38,811 nucleotides of DNA from a virus, in IMG/VR virus record IMGVR_UViG_3300030294_000092. One strand, 5' to 3'. This document shows positions 17,878 to 38,811 of this stretch, piece after piece. The position numbers and the translations under genes are program-made. Positions within the stretch are counted from its first letter, which is position 1. Every line of letters begins with the position of its first letter. The notes under the pieces were generated by a model. It had not been told where the DNA came from, ran no database searches, and saw only the letters and a list, made by a program, of their open reading frames with translations.

Positions 17878-19125
17878 TTACTGAGCTGGCTCCAGCCTAT
17901 CCATACCTGGAAGGGAAGTAGCACCTGGAAGGAGCCAGTGGCCGTTGCCACGTTGCTGGAGGATCAGGTAGCCGGAACGGACGGCTCCGGTAATGACAGC
18001 TTCGAAATCCTGCATCTTAGGGAAGTGGGAGTGGACGAAGCGATAGGCTTCTTCGTAAGGGCAGCCTCCTCGTTTGGCCACATACCAGATTAGACGTTCG
18101 GCGTAGACAGCATCTTCGGACTTGCCGATTTTTGAGAAGACAAACTGCATATCAGGTTCGAGGTCGGTGACCATCTGGTCAGCTAGGGCGAGGTGTTCGG
18201 CTTCGATGACGAGGCGGTCGCCCTCGGCTGCAGCTAAGATCATGGCTAGTTTGTGGATGTGGGTTTGCTTTCGGGCGAGATAACCTCCGAAGCGTTCGTC
18301 GTCGAGGTGGAGGTGTTTGGCAGAGTAGTGGCGGTCGTACCATGCCTTGCCCCAGACTTTAGCCTCTGTAGAGAGCTTGTATTCGCCCACGAGGGTTGAG
18401 ATTTGGCTGAGATCTTCGACTAACCGTTGGGCGATTTGCTTCATATTCTCCGGGACAAAATCACCTGGATAAGCCACGAGTTTATCTTTTTTGTCAGCAT
18501 AGACAAACACACAGCGGGAAGTAAACCCTCCTCCGATCATGTATTCTGGGAAATTACCAGCGATCCAAGCGGGAGTCGTGCAGGCAATGAGATTGATCCA
18601 AGGGTTCTCGACGATGTCACAACCAGATCCCTTTGTTTTCTTCTCAAACGCCCCTTGCTTCCCATCCCACAGTGACACCAGGAGATCGACCATTTCCTTA
18701 TCCTGAGGATTGAGTAGATTGCCAAACTCAGAAGATTCGATTGTGAGGGCCGACATCGCATGGAATTCTCCTTCGTATTCGTAGGAAATGGTGGCTTCGG
18801 CAAAGCCGGTTACGAGAGCTTGCCATGTCACGACATCGGGGCCGAACTTGATGTCAGGGACTTTTTTGAGAAGTGACATTCCGATGGTGGCAGTGGTTGA
18901 CTTTGAGACGATCCCAGGTGGAGCCACGAGGATGATGTAGAAGTTAGGATACCAGCGGAAGTAGGCCATGTCGATCCAAACATGACGGCGAAGCGCTCCA
19001 GCGACTGTGGAAACAGCCGTCCAAAAGTGCATGTGAGGCGGGGCTTCGGAGAAGGCCGCATATTCCATGAAGGCCTTGATCCAGTTAGGATAGTGTCGTC
19101 TGCTCATTACCCGCAAGCTCCCCAT
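17878..19125 (-). CDS. DUF3987-like P-loop NTPase (possible replicative helicase or primase-associated protein)
   Basis: The pattern HFWTAVSTVAGALRRHVWID...FYIILVAPPGIVSKSTTA resembles DUF3987/VirE-type phage proteins, from memory. An alternative start, ATG 19107, forms TAATG with the polymerase stop and has a GGGAG SD. Confidence 0.45.
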   Translation of the reverse strand: MGSLRVMSRRHYPNWIKAFMEYAAFSEAPPHMHFWTAVSTVAGALRRHVWIDMAYFRWYPNFYIILVAPPGIVSKSTTATIGMSLLKKVPDIKFGPDVVTWQALVTGFAEATISYEYEGEFHAMSALTIESSEFGNLLNPQDKEMVDLLVSLWDGKQGAFEKKTKGSGCDIVENPWINLIACTTPAWIAGNFPEYMIGGGFTSRCVFVYADKKDKLVAYPGDFVPENMKQIAQRLVEDLSQISTLVGEYKLSTEAKVWGKAWYDRHYSAKHLHLDDERFGGYLARKQTHIHKLAMILAAAEGDRLVIEAEHLALADQMVTDLEPDMQFVFSKIGKSEDAVYAERLIWYVAKRGGCPYEEAYRFVHSHFPKMQDFEAVITGAVRSGYLILQQRGNGHWLLPGATSLPGMDRLEPAQ

Positions 19126-21559: not shown

Positions 21560-22891
21560 TCATAGCATAGCCGGTTCAGAGTCGAGGGCATTGAGACGGT
21601 TGACTGAGATACCGTAATATTCGGAATTTAGTTCAAGTCCCGTAGCATAGAGCTTAAGCCCGTGGGCCGCTGGGAAAATTGTCCCTGAGCCTGCGAAAGC
21701 ATCGAGAACAGTGTCGCCGGGGCTGGTCGAACGCTTGAGCAGGTCGATGTAGAGTTCAACAGGCTTATTGGCTCCGTGGGTGAGATTCTCCTCGAGCTTG
21801 CAAGGGATAACGTCAGGGTAGATGCCAGTGACTTTTCGACCACCTTTAAGGGCATAGAGAATATATTCATGCTGTCTCCTAGGGCCTTGGTCGGGAAGGG
21901 GTACACGGCCAGAACCGAGTTTGTAGACGATGATAGGGGTGCGGAATACATACCAGCCAGCAGCTTGCATCTTGGCCTTGAGGAGGTGGAATTTATCGAA
22001 ATCACAGAAGATGTAAGCATGGGCTTGAGGCTTTGCCACGCGGAAGGCCTCTGAGCAGAAGGCGTCCATGAGCTTATTCCAAGCTTCCGGACTATCATCA
22101 TAATGATGCTCTGAATTAACCATTTTCCCCCCACCGTCTCCAAAGTTCTGGGCGTTCATCCCATAAGGTGGGTCAGTGAGGATAACGTCAAATTGATTGT
22201 CAGGGCTTTCGGCCATCCACTGCAGACAGTCAACGTGGAATAGCTTGTGTGCAGAGGAGTTATAAGAAACACCGACAGTTTCCGCCAGCCGTTGGTGTTT
22301 TTGCCGAGCTTCCTCACGTTTAAGGGCTTTGAAAGCTTCTTTTTCGTTCTTGGCTCCGGATACCAGAGGATTGGAGAGATGGTCGGCGAGGAGAATTGAC
22401 TGGCGGTTTGTCGTGTAGTCAGCCGAAGCTTGACCACCGCTTTCTGATACTTCGCGGATCGTGTCCGCGATTGAGTGTGATTGGCCCACCATCTCGGCTT
22501 GAGCAGTACGCAGTCGATGGAGACGGGCAAGGGCTTCCGAGCGTTCCTGCCAAGTAAGATCTTGACGCTTGAGATTTTCATCGAGTTCGGCCTCTTCGGC
22601 TTCGAGGGGGGTTAGTTCGCCAAGGGTGACGATGGGGAGGTGATCGGGGGGGATTTGGAGGCCGTTGTGGCGCGTTCCGTCTCCGAGGAGCCAAATAGTC
22701 TCTAGGGCGCGCAATCGACGCTCGCCGGCCACAAGAACCGGCCCCTCGAGGGTTTCTCGCACAACAATCGGGTGGAGTAGCCCAAGACTGGAAATTGAGT
22801 TTGCGAGGTCTGTCAGAGCCTCGGGATCAAATTCTTTCCGCTGGCGATCAGGGGAGATGATTAGTTTCGAACGGTGGATGTGGGAAGTCAT
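21560..22891 (-). CDS. ParB-like nuclease domain fused to an N6-adenine/N4-cytosine DNA methyltransferase
   Basis: The N-terminus IISPDRQRKEFD...LGLLHPIVVRE...VLVAGERRLRA is ParB/Srx-like. DVILTDPPYG is motif IV (DPPY). VLDAFAGSGTIFPAA is motif I. This order is that of the beta class. Confidence 0.85.
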   Translation of the reverse strand: MTSHIHRSKLIISPDRQRKEFDPEALTDLANSISSLGLLHPIVVRETLEGPVLVAGERRLRALETIWLLGDGTRHNGLQIPPDHLPIVTLGELTPLEAEEAELDENLKRQDLTWQERSEALARLHRLRTAQAEMVGQSHSIADTIREVSESGGQASADYTTNRQSILLADHLSNPLVSGAKNEKEAFKALKREEARQKHQRLAETVGVSYNSSAHKLFHVDCLQWMAESPDNQFDVILTDPPYGMNAQNFGDGGGKMVNSEHHYDDSPEAWNKLMDAFCSEAFRVAKPQAHAYIFCDFDKFHLLKAKMQAAGWYVFRTPIIVYKLGSGRVPLPDQGPRRQHEYILYALKGGRKVTGIYPDVIPCKLEENLTHGANKPVELYIDLLKRSTSPGDTVLDAFAGSGTIFPAAHGLKLYATGLELNSEYYGISVNRLNALDSEPAML

Positions 22892-32975: not shown

Positions 32976-33410
32976 TCAATCCTCTCTCTTGAAAAAGGGA
33001 TTTGACTTCCGCACTTCCGGCTTCTCAGCCAACAGCTTCAAATCCTCGTTGATCTGCTTTTCCTCAGGGGTTTGGAGGTCAGCCTCCCCGATCCCGAGGG
33101 ACTGCAACTGAAGTTCGAGTTCAGAAAGTGACTTCCTCGGCAGGAAGGTAATCACGCAGGGGTCGGAGTTATCCTCGGGCTTGGCCAACGTTGGGACGAT
33201 ATACTCCGCTGCGGCTTCAAGCACCGAGTTGAAGGCTTCTCGATTGCGGTAAGGCCGAATCGCTCGGTAAAGCCCAACCCGCATGGAGGTCGCGACTGAG
33301 AAGTTCGAGGCATTAATAGTGATTGGTTTAAGCCCGAGGTCTTTCTCTTCATAAGCTTTCTTCCAAAGCGCGAGATAGATGCGGTTGAGCTGGGATAGGT
33401 CTTTGGCCAT
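32976..33410 (-). CDS. Hypothetical protein (144 aa)
   Basis: Second gene of the early operon. ATG 33410. No motif recognised. Confidence 0.55.
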   Translation of the reverse strand: MAKDLSQLNRIYLALWKKAYEEKDLGLKPITINASNFSVATSMRVGLYRAIRPYRNREAFNSVLEAAAEYIVPTLAKPEDNSDPCVITFLPRKSLSELELQLQSLGIGEADLQTPEEKQINEDLKLLAEKPEVRKSNPFFKRED

Positions 33411-33441
33411 GATGGGGCTTTCGAGCAGGGTGGTGGGAATT

Positions 33442-33476
33442 GGGCTGGTCAGGGTGAGAGGTTCCCTGACCAGCCC
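33442..33476 (-). other. 13-bp perfect hairpin between the first two early genes; part of a three-element set (GGTCAGGG / CCCTGACC / GGTCAGGG) able to form alternative structures
   Basis: gggctggtcaggg (33442-33454) pairs with ccctgaccagccc (33464-33476). A third element, ggtcaggg, lies at 33479-33486 next to the stop codon of the 33488 gene. No U-tract follows. Confidence 0.6.
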
Positions 33477-33487
33477 AAGGTCAGGGC

Positions 33488-33682
33488 TTAAACCCCTTCG
33501 ACGATCATAGCAACGATGCCTTGGGGTTCGATCTGACCAGCGACGAAGGCTTCCGCGTCAGTTTGAGTGAGATAAGTTCCAATGAGCTTGCTTTCGACGA
33601 GGACATTGAAGCCGACAGGCAGTTCAGCCGTTGCGGGTTCGGAAGTTTCGACAATATCGGTAGTGGTGGGCTTGAGAGCCAT
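33488..33682 (-). CDS. First early-arm gene: small, very acidic protein (64 aa)
   Basis: GAAAGG SD. Counted from the translation: 9 Asp/Glu and 2 Lys. It is the first ORF downstream of the divergent control region. Confidence 0.55.
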   Translation of the reverse strand: MALKPTTTDIVETSEPATAELPVGFNVLVESKLIGTYLTQTDAEAFVAGQIEPQGIVAMIVEGV

Positions 33683-33813
33683 TGGGAATTACCTTTCGAT
33701 TGAGAAGCTGCGGCATAGGGGCCACGGATTGACGTTGTATCATTACGGGGATTGAGGCAATAGGGGATTTATCGCTGGAGGTTTTGAGCTCGCGGGCAGG
33801 TATTAAAACCGAG

Positions 33814-33829
33814 TTGACGGGGGGCCGAT
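33814..33829 (+). promoter_or_regulatory. TTGACG-G5-CCGAT box (copy without an obvious downstream gene)
   Basis: TTGACGGGGGGCCGAT shares ACGGGGGGCCGAT with 34128-34140. No convincing -10 element follows (TACCCG). Confidence 0.3.
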
Positions 33830-34124
33830 CATCCCCTACCCGCGCGCGCCCACGCTCACCCGCGCAGTTTATAAGGCCTACGGGGTTTTGACCTCTCAAC
33901 ACCCCGGAATGTTTTGCCCATAAATCCTGACATTTTCAAACTTGCTACCAACCATTAAAGCAGTAACCCCCAACAGTTGATTGACCGATTGGAGGATGGT
34001 TGATGGCTGGCTAGGGATTTGACCTAGGGGGATTGGATGGGCTACTAGCCTAGGCAAGGAGGAACCCGCCTAACAGCGCTGGTGTGGCATTTTAGTCACG
34101 GTTTCGGACGGCAGGTGGGTAAAA

Positions 34125-34140
34125 TGAACGGGGGGCCGAT
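34125..34140 (+). promoter_or_regulatory. TGAACG-G5-CCGAT box, a candidate promoter for the + strand cassette
   Basis: TGAACGGGGGGCCGAT is followed 16 nt later by AAAAAT. It lies about 105 nt upstream of ATG 34245. Confidence 0.35.
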
Positions 34141-34244
34141 TATTTGAAAAATACTGTTTGCACTCCCCCAACGCTGGCCCTAGAGAGAGGTTGCTAGAGC
34201 GGTTAGCGGGGCGGTCTCCGCTAGGCTCTAGCGGAGGATTGACT

Positions 34245-34439
34245 ATGACCAAAATTAAGCTAACCCACCGTGGGGCAAACCATGAGATCAACCTCGCCCG
34301 GCTCCCCTTGGAAAGCCAAAAATACCTACTGGAGCAAGGTTTGCGGACCTACCTAGAGGATAGCCTCGCCGCTGGGGTCCCGGCGAACGCGGCTCTAGCC
34401 AAACTTCATATCTTGCCTGCCGCAAATAACCCGCGATAA
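34245..34439 (+). CDS. Hypothetical protein (64 aa), possibly a small DNA-binding/regulatory protein
   Basis: GGAGGA SD 7 nt upstream of the ATG. EINLARLPLESQKYLLEQGLRTYLEDSL is loosely RHH-like (weak evidence). Confidence 0.55.
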   Translation: MTKIKLTHRGANHEINLARLPLESQKYLLEQGLRTYLEDSLAAGVPANAALAKLHILPAANNPR

Positions 34440-34442
34440 CCC

Positions 34443-34474
34443 TAGAGGCTAGGCTCCAAACCCCCTAGCCTCTA
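34443..34474 (+). other. 11-bp perfect hairpin between the two cassette genes (no U-tract)
   Basis: tagaggctagg (34443-34453) pairs with cctagcctcta (34464-34474). Confidence 0.6.
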
Positions 34475-34518
34475 TAGATAGCGCGGATTGCTGTCAACCC
34501 GACAAAGGAATGACTACC

Positions 34519-35058
34519 ATGGCTAAAAAGTCCCTAATCGAAACAACCATTGCTGCTGATTTTTCGGCAATCACCCTCAAGGTTGAGGGGGCGGGTGCTA
34601 TCAATATCACTGTCGCCAATCTATCGGATGAATTGCGCGCTAGAGCATTGGCCCATGGGTTGGTGCAAAAAATCTCTGACGCCGCCGCGATTAAACGCGA
34701 TGACTTGACCGGCGACCCTCTCGCCGATGCAAAAACAAAATTCGCGGCAATGGAGGCAGTTGCCAACCGTCTAATTGACGGCGAGTGGGCCGCCCGCAAT
34801 GGTGACGGCACCGGGCCGGTTAGCGGGATTATCTACCTCGCATTTGAGCAATGGGCGCTCGCCAAGGCCACATCCGCCAAAAAGCCCCTACTCCCCGCTG
34901 CTATCCGCGCGGCCTATGCTGGGAAGGATCGTGCTGGGCAGCTCGCCCTCCGCAACGTCCCCGAAATCGCCGCGATCATTGAGGAGATCAAGGTCAAACG
35001 TGGCGCGGGGAAAACCGTGGGTTCGGGTGATGCTCTATTAGCAGATTTGGGCCTCTAA
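34519..35058 (+). CDS. Paralog of the 30120..30713 early protein (179 aa), unknown family
   Basis: ATG 34519 lies 9 nt after an AAGGA SD (ATG 34510 is too close to it). Conserved blocks are shared with the 30120 protein, and it ends in GDALLADLGL. Confidence 0.7.
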   Translation: MAKKSLIETTIAADFSAITLKVEGAGAINITVANLSDELRARALAHGLVQKISDAAAIKRDDLTGDPLADAKTKFAAMEAVANRLIDGEWAARNGDGTGPVSGIIYLAFEQWALAKATSAKKPLLPAAIRAAYAGKDRAGQLALRNVPEIAAIIEEIKVKRGAGKTVGSGDALLADLGL

Positions 35059-35070
35059 TCCACCCAACCT

Positions 35071-35101
35071 AGGGCAGGGTTATTCCTGCCCTCATTTTTA
35101 G
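35071..35101 (+). terminator. Rho-independent terminator
   Basis: agggcagg (35071-35078), loop gttatt, cctgccct (35085-35092), followed by cattttta. Confidence 0.7.
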
Positions 35102-35126
35102 ACCTATCCGGTGAGGCAATTATCCT

Positions 35127-35240
35127 ATGACCCATCCCCCCCGCCACCCACTCCTAATCGCATTGGGATGGCTAGCTCTCGCGGTTGTTCTGTCGGCAGG
35201 CGCTGTCTCACTAACCCTCCTACTCGCGGCCATGCCCTAA
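35127..35240 (+). CDS. Candidate micro-ORF: 37-aa single-pass membrane peptide MTHPPRHPLLIALGWLALAVVLSAGAVSLTLLLAAMP
   Basis: My own translation, ATG 35127 to TAA 35238-35240 (below the 60-aa cutoff of the ORF track). One uninterrupted hydrophobic helix follows a basic N-terminus. Weak SD (GAGG about 11 nt upstream). Bracketed by two terminators. Confidence 0.35.
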   Translation: MTHPPRHPLLIALGWLALAVVLSAGAVSLTLLLAAMP

Positions 35241-35277
35241 CCCCTCGGTTAGTCTGCTGCCCTAACTCAGCCCCCAA

Positions 35278-35309
35278 CCCGCTAGGCCTAACCGTCTAGC
35301 GGGTTTTTT
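35278..35309 (+). terminator. Rho-independent terminator
   Basis: cccgctag (35278-35285), a 10-nt loop, ctagcggg (35296-35303), followed by tttttt (35304-35309). Confidence 0.8.
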
Positions 35310-35760
35310 CGTGCCCATATCCGTTCTCATTTTGTCCGACGATTTGAGTAGGGTCTAGGGCGTTTGGCTATAGAGATAGCGGGATAGCCTCTAATCGCCC
35401 TCATGGCCCACCAATCCGAGGATTTGACCCTATCCCCCGGCCATGCCGCCATCACCTATCACCTCTCCCCCACCCCTCCATTATCAAACAGGGTAGGGGT
35501 CACAGGAGGGGTCTCCACCCATCTCCCAATGTGCCATGTAACATTCCGGCCCCCCTCCATCCTCGGGGATCCCATTGTGTTTTTCATCTCCCCGGTATCT
35601 CTCTTCTCGTAATTTTTTTTCTCTGAGCACAGAGGATACAAATGGGGGGATGGTGGGAGAGGTGGGCCGATCGGTGTGTCGGTTGCATACTACACCATCC
35701 CCCGTCTCTCCTCGCTATGTTATCAACGTCACCCCGTTTGCTACATGGTACTATGGCTAA

Positions 35761-36004
35761 CGGGTAGCCACCCCCCCGGCTACCCCTAGCCCGTCCTGGC
35801 CCATCCCCTGCCATCACGGCCCACCCTTCACTAGCCCCTCCATCGGCCCACCGGCCCCACCCTTGCGCCTGCCCTATCCCTCGCCAGCCACCGGCCCCCG
35901 CCAGCCACCATTCCCTCTCACCTCACCCCCCTCCCTTGCCCCTAGAAAACCAGTGGGGGTGGGTCTTCCCGGTTGGGGGTAGGGCTAAGGGGGGTGTTTA
36001 GGGG
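35761..36004 (+). repeat. Strand-asymmetric block: about 180 nt C-rich (with GGCCCACC and GCCAGCCACC repeats) switching to about 50 nt of G-runs with a G-quadruplex-type pattern
   Basis: My count for 35821-35880 is 35 C and 8 G. GCCAGCCACC at 35883-35892 and 35900-35909. GGCCCACC at 35818 and 35845 (also at 35405, and inverted at 35661). G-runs G5-N2-G3-N4-G6-N6-G4 at 35975-36004. Confidence 0.8.
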
Positions 36005-36146
36005 CATTACAGCTCTTCGTGCATGGCTACCTTTCAACCCTCCGTAATCCTCTCAGCTACTTCACTCCTAGTTCAAAGTCCTACCGGAGGAAAATCCCAA
36101 AGCCCCTGAAGAATCCGGAGGGTTGGAAGTTCAACTAGCCGGAGGG

Positions 36147-36176
36147 TTGACGGGGGGCCAAGAGGACTGCTCAAAT
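36147..36176 (+). promoter_or_regulatory. TTGACG-G5-CC box plus TCAAAT, a candidate promoter for the late arm
   Basis: TTGACGGGGGGCCA (36147-36160), with TCAAAT at 36171-36176 after an 18-nt spacer. A second TTGACG at 36183 is followed 17 nt later by TAAGTT. TerS starts at 36245. Confidence 0.4.
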
Positions 36177-36221
36177 CATTGCTTGACGGCCCGCCGGTCG
36201 AGGGCTAAGTTCCTCCCAACT

Positions 36222-36235
36222 CCCCTGCCATAAGG
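36222..36235 (+). promoter_or_regulatory. CCCCTGCCA-T-AAGG leader motif upstream of the putative TerS gene
   Basis: CCCCTGCCATAAGGA matches CCCCTGCCAAGGA at 3925 and 6822, with a one-nt insertion. Confidence 0.35.
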
Positions 36236-36244
36236 ACACCCTCC

Positions 36245-36838
36245 ATGATCGACTATGAGAAGATTGCGGATAGCATCGACTCCCCAGACCCCGCGCCCGT
36301 GGGCCCCTCGGCTTATGCCCCAAACCGCGATCCTGGCAAATACGTTGGAATCGCTTCAGCAAAGGGCTATGGCCAAGGCCCCGAAGATGGCTACAACGGC
36401 ACACCCCGCATCCAAAAGTGCCGTTACACCCATGAAGCCCTGATTGACGTAATCATCGCTGAGCCTTCCCTCAAGCAATATGAACTCGCAGCGCGGTTTG
36501 ATCGCTCGACTCAGTGGGTCACCGTCGTCATGGGGTCCGACGCCTTTCAAGCCGCTCTCGCTAAGCGCCGGGATGAACTCACTGACCCTTTTCTCATAGC
36601 CACGATTGAAGAGCGTTTTCGTGGCTTAGCACAGCAATCTCTCCAAGTCATCGCGGCAAACCTCGAAAAGACCCAAAACGCTGATATCGCCCTCAAGGCT
36701 CTCGATATTTCGGCTAAAGCTCTTGGTTTCGGCTCCCGTTCTGCTGGCCAAACCAACATCCAAAATAACTTCGTAGTAGAGTTGCCGGGAAAGATCACGG
36801 ATCAAACTACCTGGGCAAAAACCTACACTCAAGAGTGA
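36245..36838 (+). CDS. Putative terminase small subunit (197 aa)
   Basis: First gene of the late arm, upstream of terL. The HTH-like segment LKQYELAARFDRSTQWVTVVMGSDAF is followed by helical oligomerisation-like sequence. Call is by position and HTH only. Confidence 0.5.
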   Translation: MIDYEKIADSIDSPDPAPVGPSAYAPNRDPGKYVGIASAKGYGQGPEDGYNGTPRIQKCRYTHEALIDVIIAEPSLKQYELAARFDRSTQWVTVVMGSDAFQAALAKRRDELTDPFLIATIEERFRGLAQQSLQVIAANLEKTQNADIALKALDISAKALGFGSRSAGQTNIQNNFVVELPGKITDQTTWAKTYTQE

Positions 36839-36864: not shown

Positions 36865-37758
36865 ATGTCCAGTCAAGCTTTCACCGGGCCTTCCACTGTC
36901 GGACTGATTGTATCCGATACAGACAGTAACGGGGTTGCCGGGGCTATCCCAGCCTCTACTCCTGATGCTGTTCTTGACAGTTACACTTCCATCGGCAACC
37001 TATCAGCACTTAATGTCACTTTGCAAGCTCCTACCCAAGGCTACATGGGCGGGTCGTTTCAGATCACCAGCATCGGCACCGGCAACACGGTGATGTTTGA
37101 GCATTCCAATGATGGGGTGACTTGGGCGTTTCTGCCTGCGACTGTTGCAGGCAATGCGACCAATGCGCCTACTGGCCCTACGGGTTATACAGCGGTTGGC
37201 CTTTATACGTTCATCTCTTCGGCGGCGCAGGTGCGGGCGCGTGTGTCGGTTTATGGCAGCGGGACGGTGAGCGTGACGCTGGTGCAAAAGCGGGTGGTGG
37301 CGCCGGTGGCTGGTATCTCGCTGGCATCGAGTTCGGCGGCGATTGGCGGCGTGGTTTTGACCGCAGGCACGGCGGCCATTGGCAATGTGAACATGGCAAC
37401 GGGCTATACGGACAGCACGGCGGCGCTGGGCGCGGCGGGAGTGTTTACCGGGACGGGCCGGGCGTTTAACTCGACCTTTGGCGCGCAATATGTGGCGTTT
37501 AATGCGCAGTCGCAGGCCGATCAGGCGGGCACGCTGTCTATCGAAGCCAGCTATGACACGGGGGCGAATTATTACCCGGTGGTGAGTGTGGCGGCTTCTG
37601 CGGTGGTAAATGCGGCGGGAGCGACCAGCTATGTGGCGCAGGCGCGCGTGCCGGTGATGGGCGCGTTTGGCGCGGCGACGCTTTATCGCGTGGTGTATAA
37701 GAATGGCGCAACGGCGCAGGGCGCTTTGCGGGTGGTGAGCAGCTTTACGGCAGGATAA
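36865..37758 (+). CDS. Hypothetical protein (297 aa) with two beta-rich G/A/T/S/V halves, inserted between the putative TerS and TerL
   Basis: ATG 36865. The stop lies 3 nt before the terL ATG. The halves ...SFQITSIGTGNTVMFEHSNDGVTWAFL...VRARVSVYGSGTVSVTLV and ...GTLSIEASYDTGANYYPVV...YRVVYKNGATAQGALRVV look like tandem beta-sandwich/jelly-roll units. Confidence 0.65.
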   Translation: MSSQAFTGPSTVGLIVSDTDSNGVAGAIPASTPDAVLDSYTSIGNLSALNVTLQAPTQGYMGGSFQITSIGTGNTVMFEHSNDGVTWAFLPATVAGNATNAPTGPTGYTAVGLYTFISSAAQVRARVSVYGSGTVSVTLVQKRVVAPVAGISLASSSAAIGGVVLTAGTAAIGNVNMATGYTDSTAALGAAGVFTGTGRAFNSTFGAQYVAFNAQSQADQAGTLSIEASYDTGANYYPVVSVAASAVVNAAGATSYVAQARVPVMGAFGAATLYRVVYKNGATAQGALRVVSSFTAG

Positions 37759-37761
37759 TTC

Positions 37762-38811
37762 ATGTCTCCTCCTACTACCCAAATTAGCATCTGGAAACCT
37801 CAGGAAGGCCCCCAGACAGCACTTCTCCAGTGCCCGATCTTCGAAGTCTTCTACGGTGGTGCCCGAGGTGGAGGGAAGACTGAATCTTCTATCGGGGACT
37901 GGCTTCAGCACGCTAACCTCTATGGTGAGAACGCCATCGGAATCTTTGTCCGTCGGAAGTTCAAGCAACTTGCTGAGGTCATTGCTCGAACGAAGCAACT
38001 TTTCCCAAAACTCGGAGCCAAATACAATGAACAAAAAGCCGAATGGCTCATGCCTGGAGGCGCTCGGCTTAAGTTCGTCTACCTTGAAAGGGATTCTGAT
38101 GCCGAAGAATACCAAGGCCACAACTACACCCGCGTCTATGTGGAAGAAGTTACTAACTTTCCCAGTCCTGGCCCTATTGACAAGCTCCGTGCTACTCTCC
38201 GCTCCGGCGCTGGTGTGCCTGTGGGTATGCGACTGACGGGCAACCCCGGAGGTCCAGGCCATAACTGGGTTAAAAAGCGCTACATCGACCCAGACCCCAG
38301 AGGCTTCAAAATAATAGAAGAAACCTGCGATGTGGAGATTGCCGATGAAATCCAAACAGTCAGCCTCTCGCGGGTCTTCATCCCGTCGAAGCTTGGCGAT
38401 AACATGCTCCTGCTTCGCAATGATCCTACTTACGTCCTGCGTCTCCGTCAATCTGGCTCCGAAGCTCTCGTCAAAGCTTGGCTCGAAGGAAACTGGGATA
38501 TTGTCGACGGAGCCTACTTCACTGAACTCGACGAGCACCTTCATGGCAGGGATGGAGATATCATCCGCTGGGCCCCGCCTGCAACTGTCCGCTTCCGTGC
38601 CTTTGACTGGGGTAGTGCAAAGCCTTTCTCGGTGGGTTGGTGGGCGATCGCGGACGGAACTTGGCCCAGAGACAATCCCCTCCCTTCAGGGGCAATCTTC
38701 CGCTATCGGGAATGGTACGGAGCGTCAGGGGTTAACAAAGGCCTCGGCTCCACAGCCGATGTTGTTGCCAAAGAAATCCTTAAGCAAGAAGCCGGTGAGC
38801 GTATTCGATAC
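37762..38811 (+). CDS. terL: Terminase large subunit, N-terminal ATPase part plus the start of the nuclease domain. Open at the window end; continues at nt 128.
   Basis: My translation: MSPPTTQISIWKPQEG...FYGGARGGGKTES (Walker A), RVYVEEVTNF (Walker B), LTGNPGGPGHNWVKKRY, FRAFDWGSAKPFSVGWW (nuclease Asp). There is no stop before 38811. It is missing from the ORF track because it lacks a stop. Confidence 0.92.
   Translation, partial: MSPPTTQISIWKPQEGPQTALLQCPIFEVFYGGARGGGKTESSIGDWLQHANLYGENAIGIFVRRKFKQLAEVIARTKQLFPKLGAKYNEQKAEWLMPGGARLKFVYLERDSDAEEYQGHNYTRVYVEEVTNFPSPGPIDKLRATLRSGAGVPVGMRLTGNPGGPGHNWVKKRYIDPDPRGFKIIEETCDVEIADEIQTVSLSRVFIPSKLGDNMLLLRNDPTYVLRLRQSGSEALVKAWLEGNWDIVDGAYFTELDEHLHGRDGDIIRWAPPATVRFRAFDWGSAKPFSVGWWAIADGTWPRDNPLPSGAIFRYREWYGASGVNKGLGSTADVVAKEILKQEAGERIRY
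38685..38811. repeat. Terminal overlap, second copy (identical to nt 1-127)
   Basis: Direct comparison. Confidence 0.95.

Follow-up and report, generated by a model that had tools for sequence, protein, structure and literature searches.

What is the role of an abrupt switch in strand composition that lies immediately ahead of the packaging genes of an uncultured phage? The question is posed by positions 35761-36004 of the IMG/VR virus record IMGVR_UViG_3300030294_000092, a stretch of 38,811 nucleotides (nt) that is referred to here, at its full length, as the window and that is a complete, circularly assembled podophage genome of ~38.7 kb. At this locus a tract rich in C and poor in G on the (+) strand gives way to a series of G-runs, upstream of the genes for a candidate small terminase (terS, encoding p197) and for the large terminase (terL). 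The G-rich side of the switch proves to be part of a conserved core of ~75 bp, the G block (35954-36038, + strand; consensus cGAc-GGGGGGTGGgTCnnnCCGgAGGcGGGGGT-N8-GGGGTGTTTAGGGGCATtAC-nCCTCCaCGyGC), which is conserved, a short way ahead of the packaging genes, in >50 genomes of related uncultured phages, and which we tentatively read as a packaging-initiation (pac-type) site.

Composition of the Strand Switch

On the (+) strand, positions 35761-35945 hold 106 C against 29 G (skew -0.57, 57% C over 185 nt), and positions 35946-36004 hold 30 G against 7 C (skew +0.62). A sequence-only reading of the window had singled out this extreme C-rich, G-poor block and its abrupt flip, and a skew profile bears it out: the lowest 150-nt GC skew of the whole window, -0.64, is at 35800, outside all of 100 dinucleotide-preserving shuffles of the window, the minima of which average -0.34 with none below -0.54. 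The 150-nt positive extreme is not unusual when set against such shuffles. Exact recounting gave the same 35 C and 8 G for 35821-35880 as had been claimed; the G-runs after the switch are, as described, G5, G3, G5, G3, G6 and G4; and 35975-36004 does fit the pattern G3+N1-7 x4. Since five independent assemblies (ENA, Logan, JGI) give the identical sequence, the switch is no assembly artefact.

The repeats that the same reading had called iteron-like are where it placed them, i.e. GCCAGCCACC at 35883 and 35900, 17 nt apart and with no other occurrence, and GGCCCACC at 35405, 35818 and 35845 and inverted at 35661, to which we add three further places elsewhere. However, exact repeats within the 185-nt C block are no more than its composition yields (P=0.28 for the longest, P=0.09 for 8-mer repeats, dinucleotide shuffles), and they gain significance only when relatives are compared, through the enrichment of CCAGCC described below.

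A Conserved Core Upstream of the Packaging Genes

Relatives were collected by a terL search, from which the best 80 of 145 matching IMG/VR stretches were taken (TerL identity 64-88%), with the addition of MW202489, a GenBank metagenomic genome, and a pair of metagenome-derived contigs from NCBI, of which one is a metagenome-assembled genome (MAG). Among them the switch recurs as a family trait, the G block being kept in sequence and the C tract in composition, and this conservation supports the earlier proposal of a special cis-acting region beside the packaging genes. In its fuller form (alignment A1) the G-block consensus is cGAc-GGGGGGTGGgTC-nnn-CCGgAGGcGGGGGT-N8-GGGGTGTTTAGGGGCATtAC-nCCTCCaCGyGC. 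A G-block profile (nhmmer) finds a match in 73 of 91 sequences, one per genome and always on the terminase (+) strand, and most of the sequences that lack a match have no DNA upstream of terS. The distance from the G block to the terS ATG is 134-254 nt, mostly 170-220, in most of ~50 loci. Four loci (L004, L005, L047 and L076) have the G block 560-707 nt from terS with extra DNA between, which in L004, the one of the four that was examined, is an open reading frame (ORF) downstream of the promoter; in three other loci the distance is also longer or shorter. Across the relatives the G block is the sole alignable DNA in an otherwise unalignable spacer.

The conservation of the G block is concentrated in four high-information patches (35956-35959, 35969-35980, 35997-36000 and 36016-36021) with a spacing of ~20.5 nt, and the autocorrelation of the conservation profile gives r=0.38 at lag 21, with troughs at lags 10 and 32. 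RNAalifold returns 0 pairs for 45 G-block sequences, the DNA fold of 35900-36030 has z=-0.03 against shuffles, and the C tract and the G block show no mutual pairing beyond composition (duplex energies against shuffles, mean z=0.04 over 30 loci); on these three results a hairpin or cruciform was rejected. A structured non-coding RNA was likewise rejected, there being no covarying pairs in the 45 sequences and no Rfam match anywhere in 33300-36400 with E as high as 1. A period of ~21 nt together with the lack of conserved Watson-Crick structure fits a protein-bound duplex site rather than a structured RNA; as judged from its conservation profile, the G block fits duplex DNA that would be bound by protein on one face of the helix, at every second turn.

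Wherever a p197-type terS occurs with DNA available upstream of it, the G block is present. Pam5, which has a TerL 44% identical and a different TerS, lacks the element, as does the Bradyrhizobium phage ppBjS10J-1, which has a related capsid and a different terminase; in one relative whose TerS is only 35% identical (L074) the element is degenerate. A blastn search with the G block against 50,697 GenBank phages gave no match, and the element is not described in the database families, annotated phage records or literature searched. The G block represents a novel sequence family within a familiar class of elements, the cis-acting packaging, origin or control sites.

Further, degenerate copies of the G block at ~35490 and ~35650 were considered and rejected, since the hidden Markov model finds none at E<50 and the pairwise comparisons give P=0.017 and P=0.73, respectively. 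The segment GGGTAGGGGTCACAGGAGGGGT at 35490-35512, missed by the G-block profile, is weakly similar to the central part of the G block (P=0.017 in a local alignment compared with shuffles) and may be a vestigial partial copy. A scan of IMG/VR for left-side contigs using the exact pattern CAAGYCGGAGGCGGGGG was also abandoned, as its 63 matches included only 6 contigs of the family, which were already known. In the others (57 of the 63 loci L099-L161) this 17-mer occurs once each, in unrelated 20-43-kb IMG/VR contigs, most with a GC content of about 0.47-0.53 and many from sample 3300045988; they are without a G block or the terminase genes of the family, and the 17-mer there is presumably a conserved coding segment of another phage group.

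The Small-Terminase Candidate and Its Promoter

The first gene downstream of the G block encodes p197 (36245-36838, + strand), the structural model of which has a helix-turn-helix (HTH) in the helices of residues 63-97 and a hairpin at 115-159. This layout fits the TerS architecture of an HTH plus a helical hairpin (PMC9611059). In the relatives p197 is upstream of TerL wherever it is detected, and in MW202489 it overlaps the TerL start. Comparison with known TerS by Foldseek/PDB, PDB-sequence profile, Pfam, PHROGs and NCBIfam gave no match for p197 beyond a generic HTH, and it is from position and architecture only that we call it a candidate small terminase.

Natural exchanges of terS were considered as a further line of evidence, in L018 and L026, but discarded, as large genes between terS and terL put terS off the contig. 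The terS-terL junction is especially prone to gene insertion: in the window it carries an inserted ORF of 297 aa, rich in Ala, Gly and Thr (36865-37758), which is common to the window and L005 only, and in the two discarded loci (L018:437-3079 and L026:66-4461) it carries ORFs of 745-880 aa without assigned function.

Between the G block and terS, a regular-expression scan finds a sigma-70-like promoter, TTGACG-17-TAAGTT (36183-36211, + strand), ~35 nt upstream of the terS ATG; a stricter promoter scan does not call it. Of 45 loci, 20 have the pattern TTGACN-16/18-TWNNNT in the interval from the G block to terS, in several cases as a perfect TTGACA-17-TACAAT. Because the promoter lies between the core and terS, the core is upstream of the promoter and outside the terS leader. 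The interval also holds repeats, namely a pair of CCGGAGGGTTG on the (+) strand 24 nt apart (36115 and 36139) and an inverted copy, CAACCCTCCG, at 36035, which together (36035-36149) have P<0.005 in the window; six relatives (L004, L021, L015, L052, L012 and L005) have repeat pairs of their own, also 24 nt apart, at the same place. A 14-mer, GTTGACGGGGGGCC, is found at 33813-33826 and again at 36146-36159, with near copies at 34125 and 36183; all are on the (+) strand, upstream of rightward units, and they may represent a shared extended -35 element.

A Proposed Packaging-Initiation Site

What, then, would bind the G block? The answer that we favor, while granting it rather less than an even chance, is that the G block is a packaging-initiation site bound by the HTH small terminase. 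On this model p197, encoded ~220 nt downstream, would assemble on the four patches (GGGG; C-G...GGGGG; TTTA; C....G), which would lie on one face of the helix, ~20.5 bp apart, over ~65 bp. The large terminase would then cut near the G block, and DNA would be packaged rightward into terS, terL and beyond. The C-rich tract would be a fast-evolving accessory arm that retains a composition and lineage-specific short repeats (CCAGCC here); it may provide the packaging complex with further contacts, or else shield the late operon from read-through. Both parts are in the right half of a non-coding spacer that lies at the boundary between the early rightward p182 unit, p182 being the conserved gene upstream, and the promoter of the terS-terL-portal-capsid operon. 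TerS binding, cleavage at the G block and headful packaging are all proposed here from comparative evidence.

A unique site of fixed orientation beside the small-terminase gene, as a pac site should be, is found in ~50 loci. Packaging is favored because the G block is unique, directional and tied to the terS operon in genomes with a p197-type TerS, because it is absent from Pam5 and ppBjS10J-1 and degenerate in L074, and because of both the HTH-plus-hairpin layout of p197 and the order in which repeats follow the core. Headful packaging with circular permutation is inferred for the closest cultured relatives by TerL (PMC11946847). This literature, the Mx8-like capsid and the circular assemblies make a headful pac site more likely than a cos site. 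The sequence-only reading had listed a pac site or the genome ends as alternatives to an origin, and it is this alternative that we find best supported.

Several observations weigh against this proposal. The contig ends of relatives fall within ~400 nt of the element in 14 of 62 cases, ~2.3 times the local density, but they are scattered and do not fall at a single nucleotide, and three contigs of this same phage pass straight through the region; contigs also break inside the C tract and where the spacer begins, and left-side contigs stop in the spacer. No known TerS family or fold is matched by p197, and co-occurrence is a weak argument, since phages free of the element differ in all modules. 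In relatives, DnaA-box arrays and operator-like palindromes lie beside the core, which would suggest replication or transcription control rather than packaging. Finally, the distance between the core and the promoter is constant despite genes inserted between the promoter and terS, so that the core could belong to the promoter. Packaging, origin and control functions do not exclude one another and are compatible within one compact control region.

The clustering of contig ends was considered as a sign of physical DNA ends and set aside, given that the ends are scattered and that hypervariability and poly-G runs explain them at least as well. Assemblies break often in the region of the C tract and G block. 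In one near-complete linear contig of 39.9 kb (L169 + L030) the C tract and G block are missing between non-overlapping ends; elsewhere one contig (L173) stops inside its C tract and another (L029) begins with a G16 run.

The C-Rich Tract and a Possible Origin

The C-rich, G-poor tract of the window (35761-35945, + strand) has counterparts in the relatives that retain its composition and not its sequence. When 32 loci are anchored on the G block, the mean skew is about -0.3 from -250 to 0 and +0.48 in the G block itself, with a short stretch of C excess on its 3' side; taken locus by locus, the 200-nt segment that precedes the G block ranks within the lowest 2% of skew windows in 20 of 36 cases. 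The motif CCAGCC, contained in each of the two GCCAGCCACC copies (35883-35909, + strand), is found 35 times upstream of the G block in 43 loci against 7.4 expected (z=9.6), with a bias to the (+) strand and a peak 50-100 nt upstream of the G block.

Some relatives carry something else at this position. Arrays of DnaA boxes (TTATCCACA / TGTGGATAA) are present directly upstream of the G block in three of them, with 8 boxes within 270 nt at up to 1 mismatch, 6 of them perfect, in L057:8369-8633, 6 boxes in L071:8923-9090, and 2 boxes ~230-320 nt upstream of the G block in L051, on a background of 0.2-0.5 per kb; the window has no DnaA box near the G block. In two other relatives the same position is occupied by (CACCCAT)x6 (L047) and by three palindromes (L046). 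In a more distant subgroup a Fur-box-like palindrome (GAATGATAATCATTC and variants) is found 40-60 nt upstream of the G block (L046, L035, L055, L067 and MW202489, in the last at L089 ~290-330).

Such arrays raise the possibility of a replication origin, which is the main rival reading. The variable upstream repeats would then bind an initiator, be it host DnaA or another factor, and the G block would supply what is constant in the origin, serving in unwinding, helicase loading or priming. Consistent with this proposal are the location of the DnaA boxes at the C-tract position, the significance of a repeat-coverage test on the 300 nt upstream of the core in 24 of 43 loci (the window included; L047 and L046 are examples), the uniqueness of a non-coding site at the early/late boundary, and the conserved p182, which is always adjacent. 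We nevertheless consider an origin possible but doubtful. An AT-rich unwinding element was not found, as no 40-nt stretch reaches 65% A+T in the spacer of the window or in L057; near the element the window has no DnaA box, only short C-rich repeats of borderline significance; and no initiator gene is recognizable. The cumulative GC skew of the whole genome is lowest near 6.5 kb and highest near 31-34 kb, the switch at the G block being local. Moreover, where DnaA or Fur-like boxes accompany a divergent p182 they sit in a divergent promoter region and could just regulate transcription. Whole-genome skew was itself dropped as a predictor of origins, being inconsistent between the window and MW202489, in which it is uninformative.

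G-Richness and Priming of Replication

The sequence-only reading had preferred a more specific form of origin, primed by transcription or an R-loop and involving a G-quadruplex (G4), an i-motif or an R-loop, on the grounds that no primase gene was visible. That premise is doubtful: the ORF at 17878-19125 (- strand) matches PHROG 14296, 'DNA primase' (E=4e-85), although Pfam shows DUF3987 only. G4 prediction did identify the canonical motif (G3+N1-7 x4; 35975-36004, + strand) in the window, and G-richness is conserved, with a G4Hunter score of at least 1.5 in 40 of 45 elements. The motif itself, however, is specific to the window rather than family-wide, being present in only 6 of the 45 homologous elements, or in 10 if loops of up to 12 nt are allowed.

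The R-loop origins of T4 work together with a Dda-like helicase, and a Dda-like helicase is encoded here too. The conserved positions other than G (TTTA, C31 and CATTAC) nonetheless argue for sequence-specific recognition, and there is no signal of pairing or structure beyond composition. A promoter for a leftward G-rich RNA across the C tract was not found, the strict scan being blank on both strands, and the sigma-70-like sites that were found point rightward, downstream of the G block. Considering also that a replication module is present and that the global skew extremes are elsewhere, a transcription- or R-loop-primed origin is poorly supported, and we regard it as highly improbable.

The Orientation of p182 and Transcription Control

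The strength of the C tract depends on the gene upstream: its mean skew is -0.42 where p182 is co-directional as against -0.21 where p182 is divergent, an effect that persists at equal TerL distance (L037 and L082 compared with L035 and L056). This dependence would be accounted for if the G block were a site at which a phage or host factor binds to control the terS (late) promoter 100-200 bp downstream and the C tract an insulator of the Rho-utilization (rut) type against read-through from p182. The core-promoter distance, which stays constant even with DNA inserted before terS (L004, L005, L047 and L076), points the same way, as do the DnaA boxes and operator-like palindromes that relatives have here and, in MW202489, a protein annotated as an Ogr/Delta-like zinc finger. 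Sites of the rut type are C-rich, G-poor and unstructured over ~80 nt or more; by composition the tract is such a sequence, being C-rich and G-poor (C:G 106:29) over >80 nt and not specifically structured.

A control site of this type is, in our view, rather unlikely all the same. There is a single copy per genome, with no repetition of the kind seen in a regulon, and it would be unusual for an activator to use a site of 65 bp that has patches at every second turn and is 100-190 bp before a sigma-70-type -35 element. The p182 unit is already closed by two strong intrinsic terminators, and the C tract abuts the core, albeit more weakly, also where p182 is divergent. Packaging initiation remains the reading that we prefer, with the C tract as a possible accessory arm.

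The Genome and Neighboring Genes

Positions 1-127 of the window are repeated at 38685-38811, inside terL; this is the overlap of a circular assembly (k=127) and no biological terminal repeat. An independent ENA assembly closes the circle likewise, with a 141-nt overlap, so that two assemblers give a circle. On it, terL (503 aa, + strand) runs from 37762 to 38811 and on to 128-589 past the 127-nt overlap, and is followed by the portal gene (579-2696) and by an Mx8-like capsid and tail module (+ strand) that extends up to about 17.8 kb. A leftward replication module (17878 to about 33410, - strand) encodes PolA, a ParB-methyltransferase fusion, the Dda-like helicase, an exonuclease, a Sak4-like annealase and the ORF that matches the 'DNA primase' PHROG; in the fusion (21560-22891, - strand) a ParB-like N-terminal domain is joined to a DNA methyltransferase.

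The last gene before the non-coding spacer is the conserved p182 (34510-35058, + strand; identified by tblastn synteny), a homologue of which is, by tblastn, the nearest gene upstream of the G block in every relative, in either orientation; many relatives have a second p182 paralogue. The p182 model is confident (predicted local distance difference test, pLDDT, 86), with a small beta-sheet and helices, and gives no PDB fold match; nor does p182 match PHROG, Pfam or NCBIfam. A terminator scan places two hairpins with T-runs resembling intrinsic terminators at 35071-35092 and 35276-35305 (+ strand), where they would end the rightward p182 unit.

The spacer between the p182 unit and terS (35306-36244, ~0.9 kb) is kept in position, at 1-2 kb, where relatives have p182 on the (+) strand. 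It holds no conserved ORF as judged by tblastn or tblastx against relatives; coding DNA was rejected as an explanation, tblastx yielding only low-complexity Pro-rich matches in mixed frames on both strands. Nearby, after the ORF at 34158-34439, there is a 26-nt inverted repeat that is 81% complementary (34428-34489), and a motif, CTATAGA(G)ATAGCGG, at 34472 recurs at 35368 (35368-35382).

With regard to the host, a cyanobacterium, as prompted by Pam5 being the closest cultured relative by TerL, was considered and rejected, since the HIP1 octamer shows no enrichment (1 occurrence against 0.8 expected). The single GTDB match is a MAG labelled Gammaproteobacteria.

Relation to Known Systems

Only a few packaging signals or origins have been described for uncultured phages, and the recognition of DNA by small terminases is still poorly understood (PMC9611059). 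A ~75-bp element with four invariant patches, an adjacent candidate binder and >50 natural variants provides a system for studying how DNA is read, be it by a small terminase or, alternatively, by an origin-binding or late-gene factor. The architecture is unusual in combining G-run patches every two turns, an arm that is kept C-rich in composition, and interchangeable repeat arrays. If the G block is a true pac site, it would supply a sequence marker with which to orient and delimit the genomes of a widespread environmental podophage family and would help predict its transduction behavior. If it is a true origin, the swapping of C-rich tracts for DnaA-box arrays at a single position would illustrate how phages exchange initiator specificity.

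The pac site of SPP1 spans ~100-250 bp around the terS start, near the terS promoter, and packaging proceeds toward terS and terL. By analogy, the G block is a unique, asymmetric site near the terS start and promoter. In contrast to SPP1 pac, with which it has no sequence similarity, its core lies wholly upstream of the promoter and does not overlap the terS coding sequence, and it has G-run patches every two turns and a long C-rich flank. Pac sites of the SPP1 type (pacL-pacC-pacR) are multi-contact sites recognized by an HTH TerS (PMC9611059).

The cos region of lambda (cosQ-cosN-cosB) is similar in that its conserved core lies ~200 bp before the terS start codon (that of Nu1, which in lambda is at nt 191), that the core is followed, as cosN is by cosB, by more variable repeats before terS, and that the lambda overhang, GGGCGGCGACCT, is G-rich, as is the core of the G block. 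Unlike lambda cos, the G block has no dyad symmetry (no complementary columns in alignment A1) and no fixed end was detected, contigs crossing the site.

Among origins, the oriV of RK2 and of IncQ plasmids comprises DnaA boxes, iterons and a GC-rich segment, and a comparable arrangement of a variable initiator-repeat array beside a constant GC-rich segment is seen in the three relatives with DnaA arrays; unlike these origins, the locus has no AT-rich unwinding region and no Rep gene, nor does the window have DnaA boxes. The C tract resembles rut regions in being a C-rich, G-poor, unstructured stretch of >80 nt after a gene, strongest if the gene is co-directional, and differs from them in that its position is tied to the G block and not to the gene end, and in its positionally enriched CCAGCC.

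The furthest-reaching comparison is with pac1 of herpesviruses, which according to published descriptions is inside a GC-rich, G4-prone region beside repeat arrays. As in pac1, the window has a T-rich element between G-runs (GGGGGG-TGTTTA-GGGG), a likeness that we offer as an analogy. The phage family, unlike pac1, keeps only the 5' G-run and TTTA, the 3' side being G/C-rich and often without a G-run; no partner of the pac2 type was identified, and homology is not claimable. That the G block is the phage counterpart of pac1, read by terminase and perhaps with G-rich non-B DNA taking part in recognition, seems to us very unlikely, but were it so, a mode of DNA recognition by terminases would be common to tailed phages and herpesviruses.

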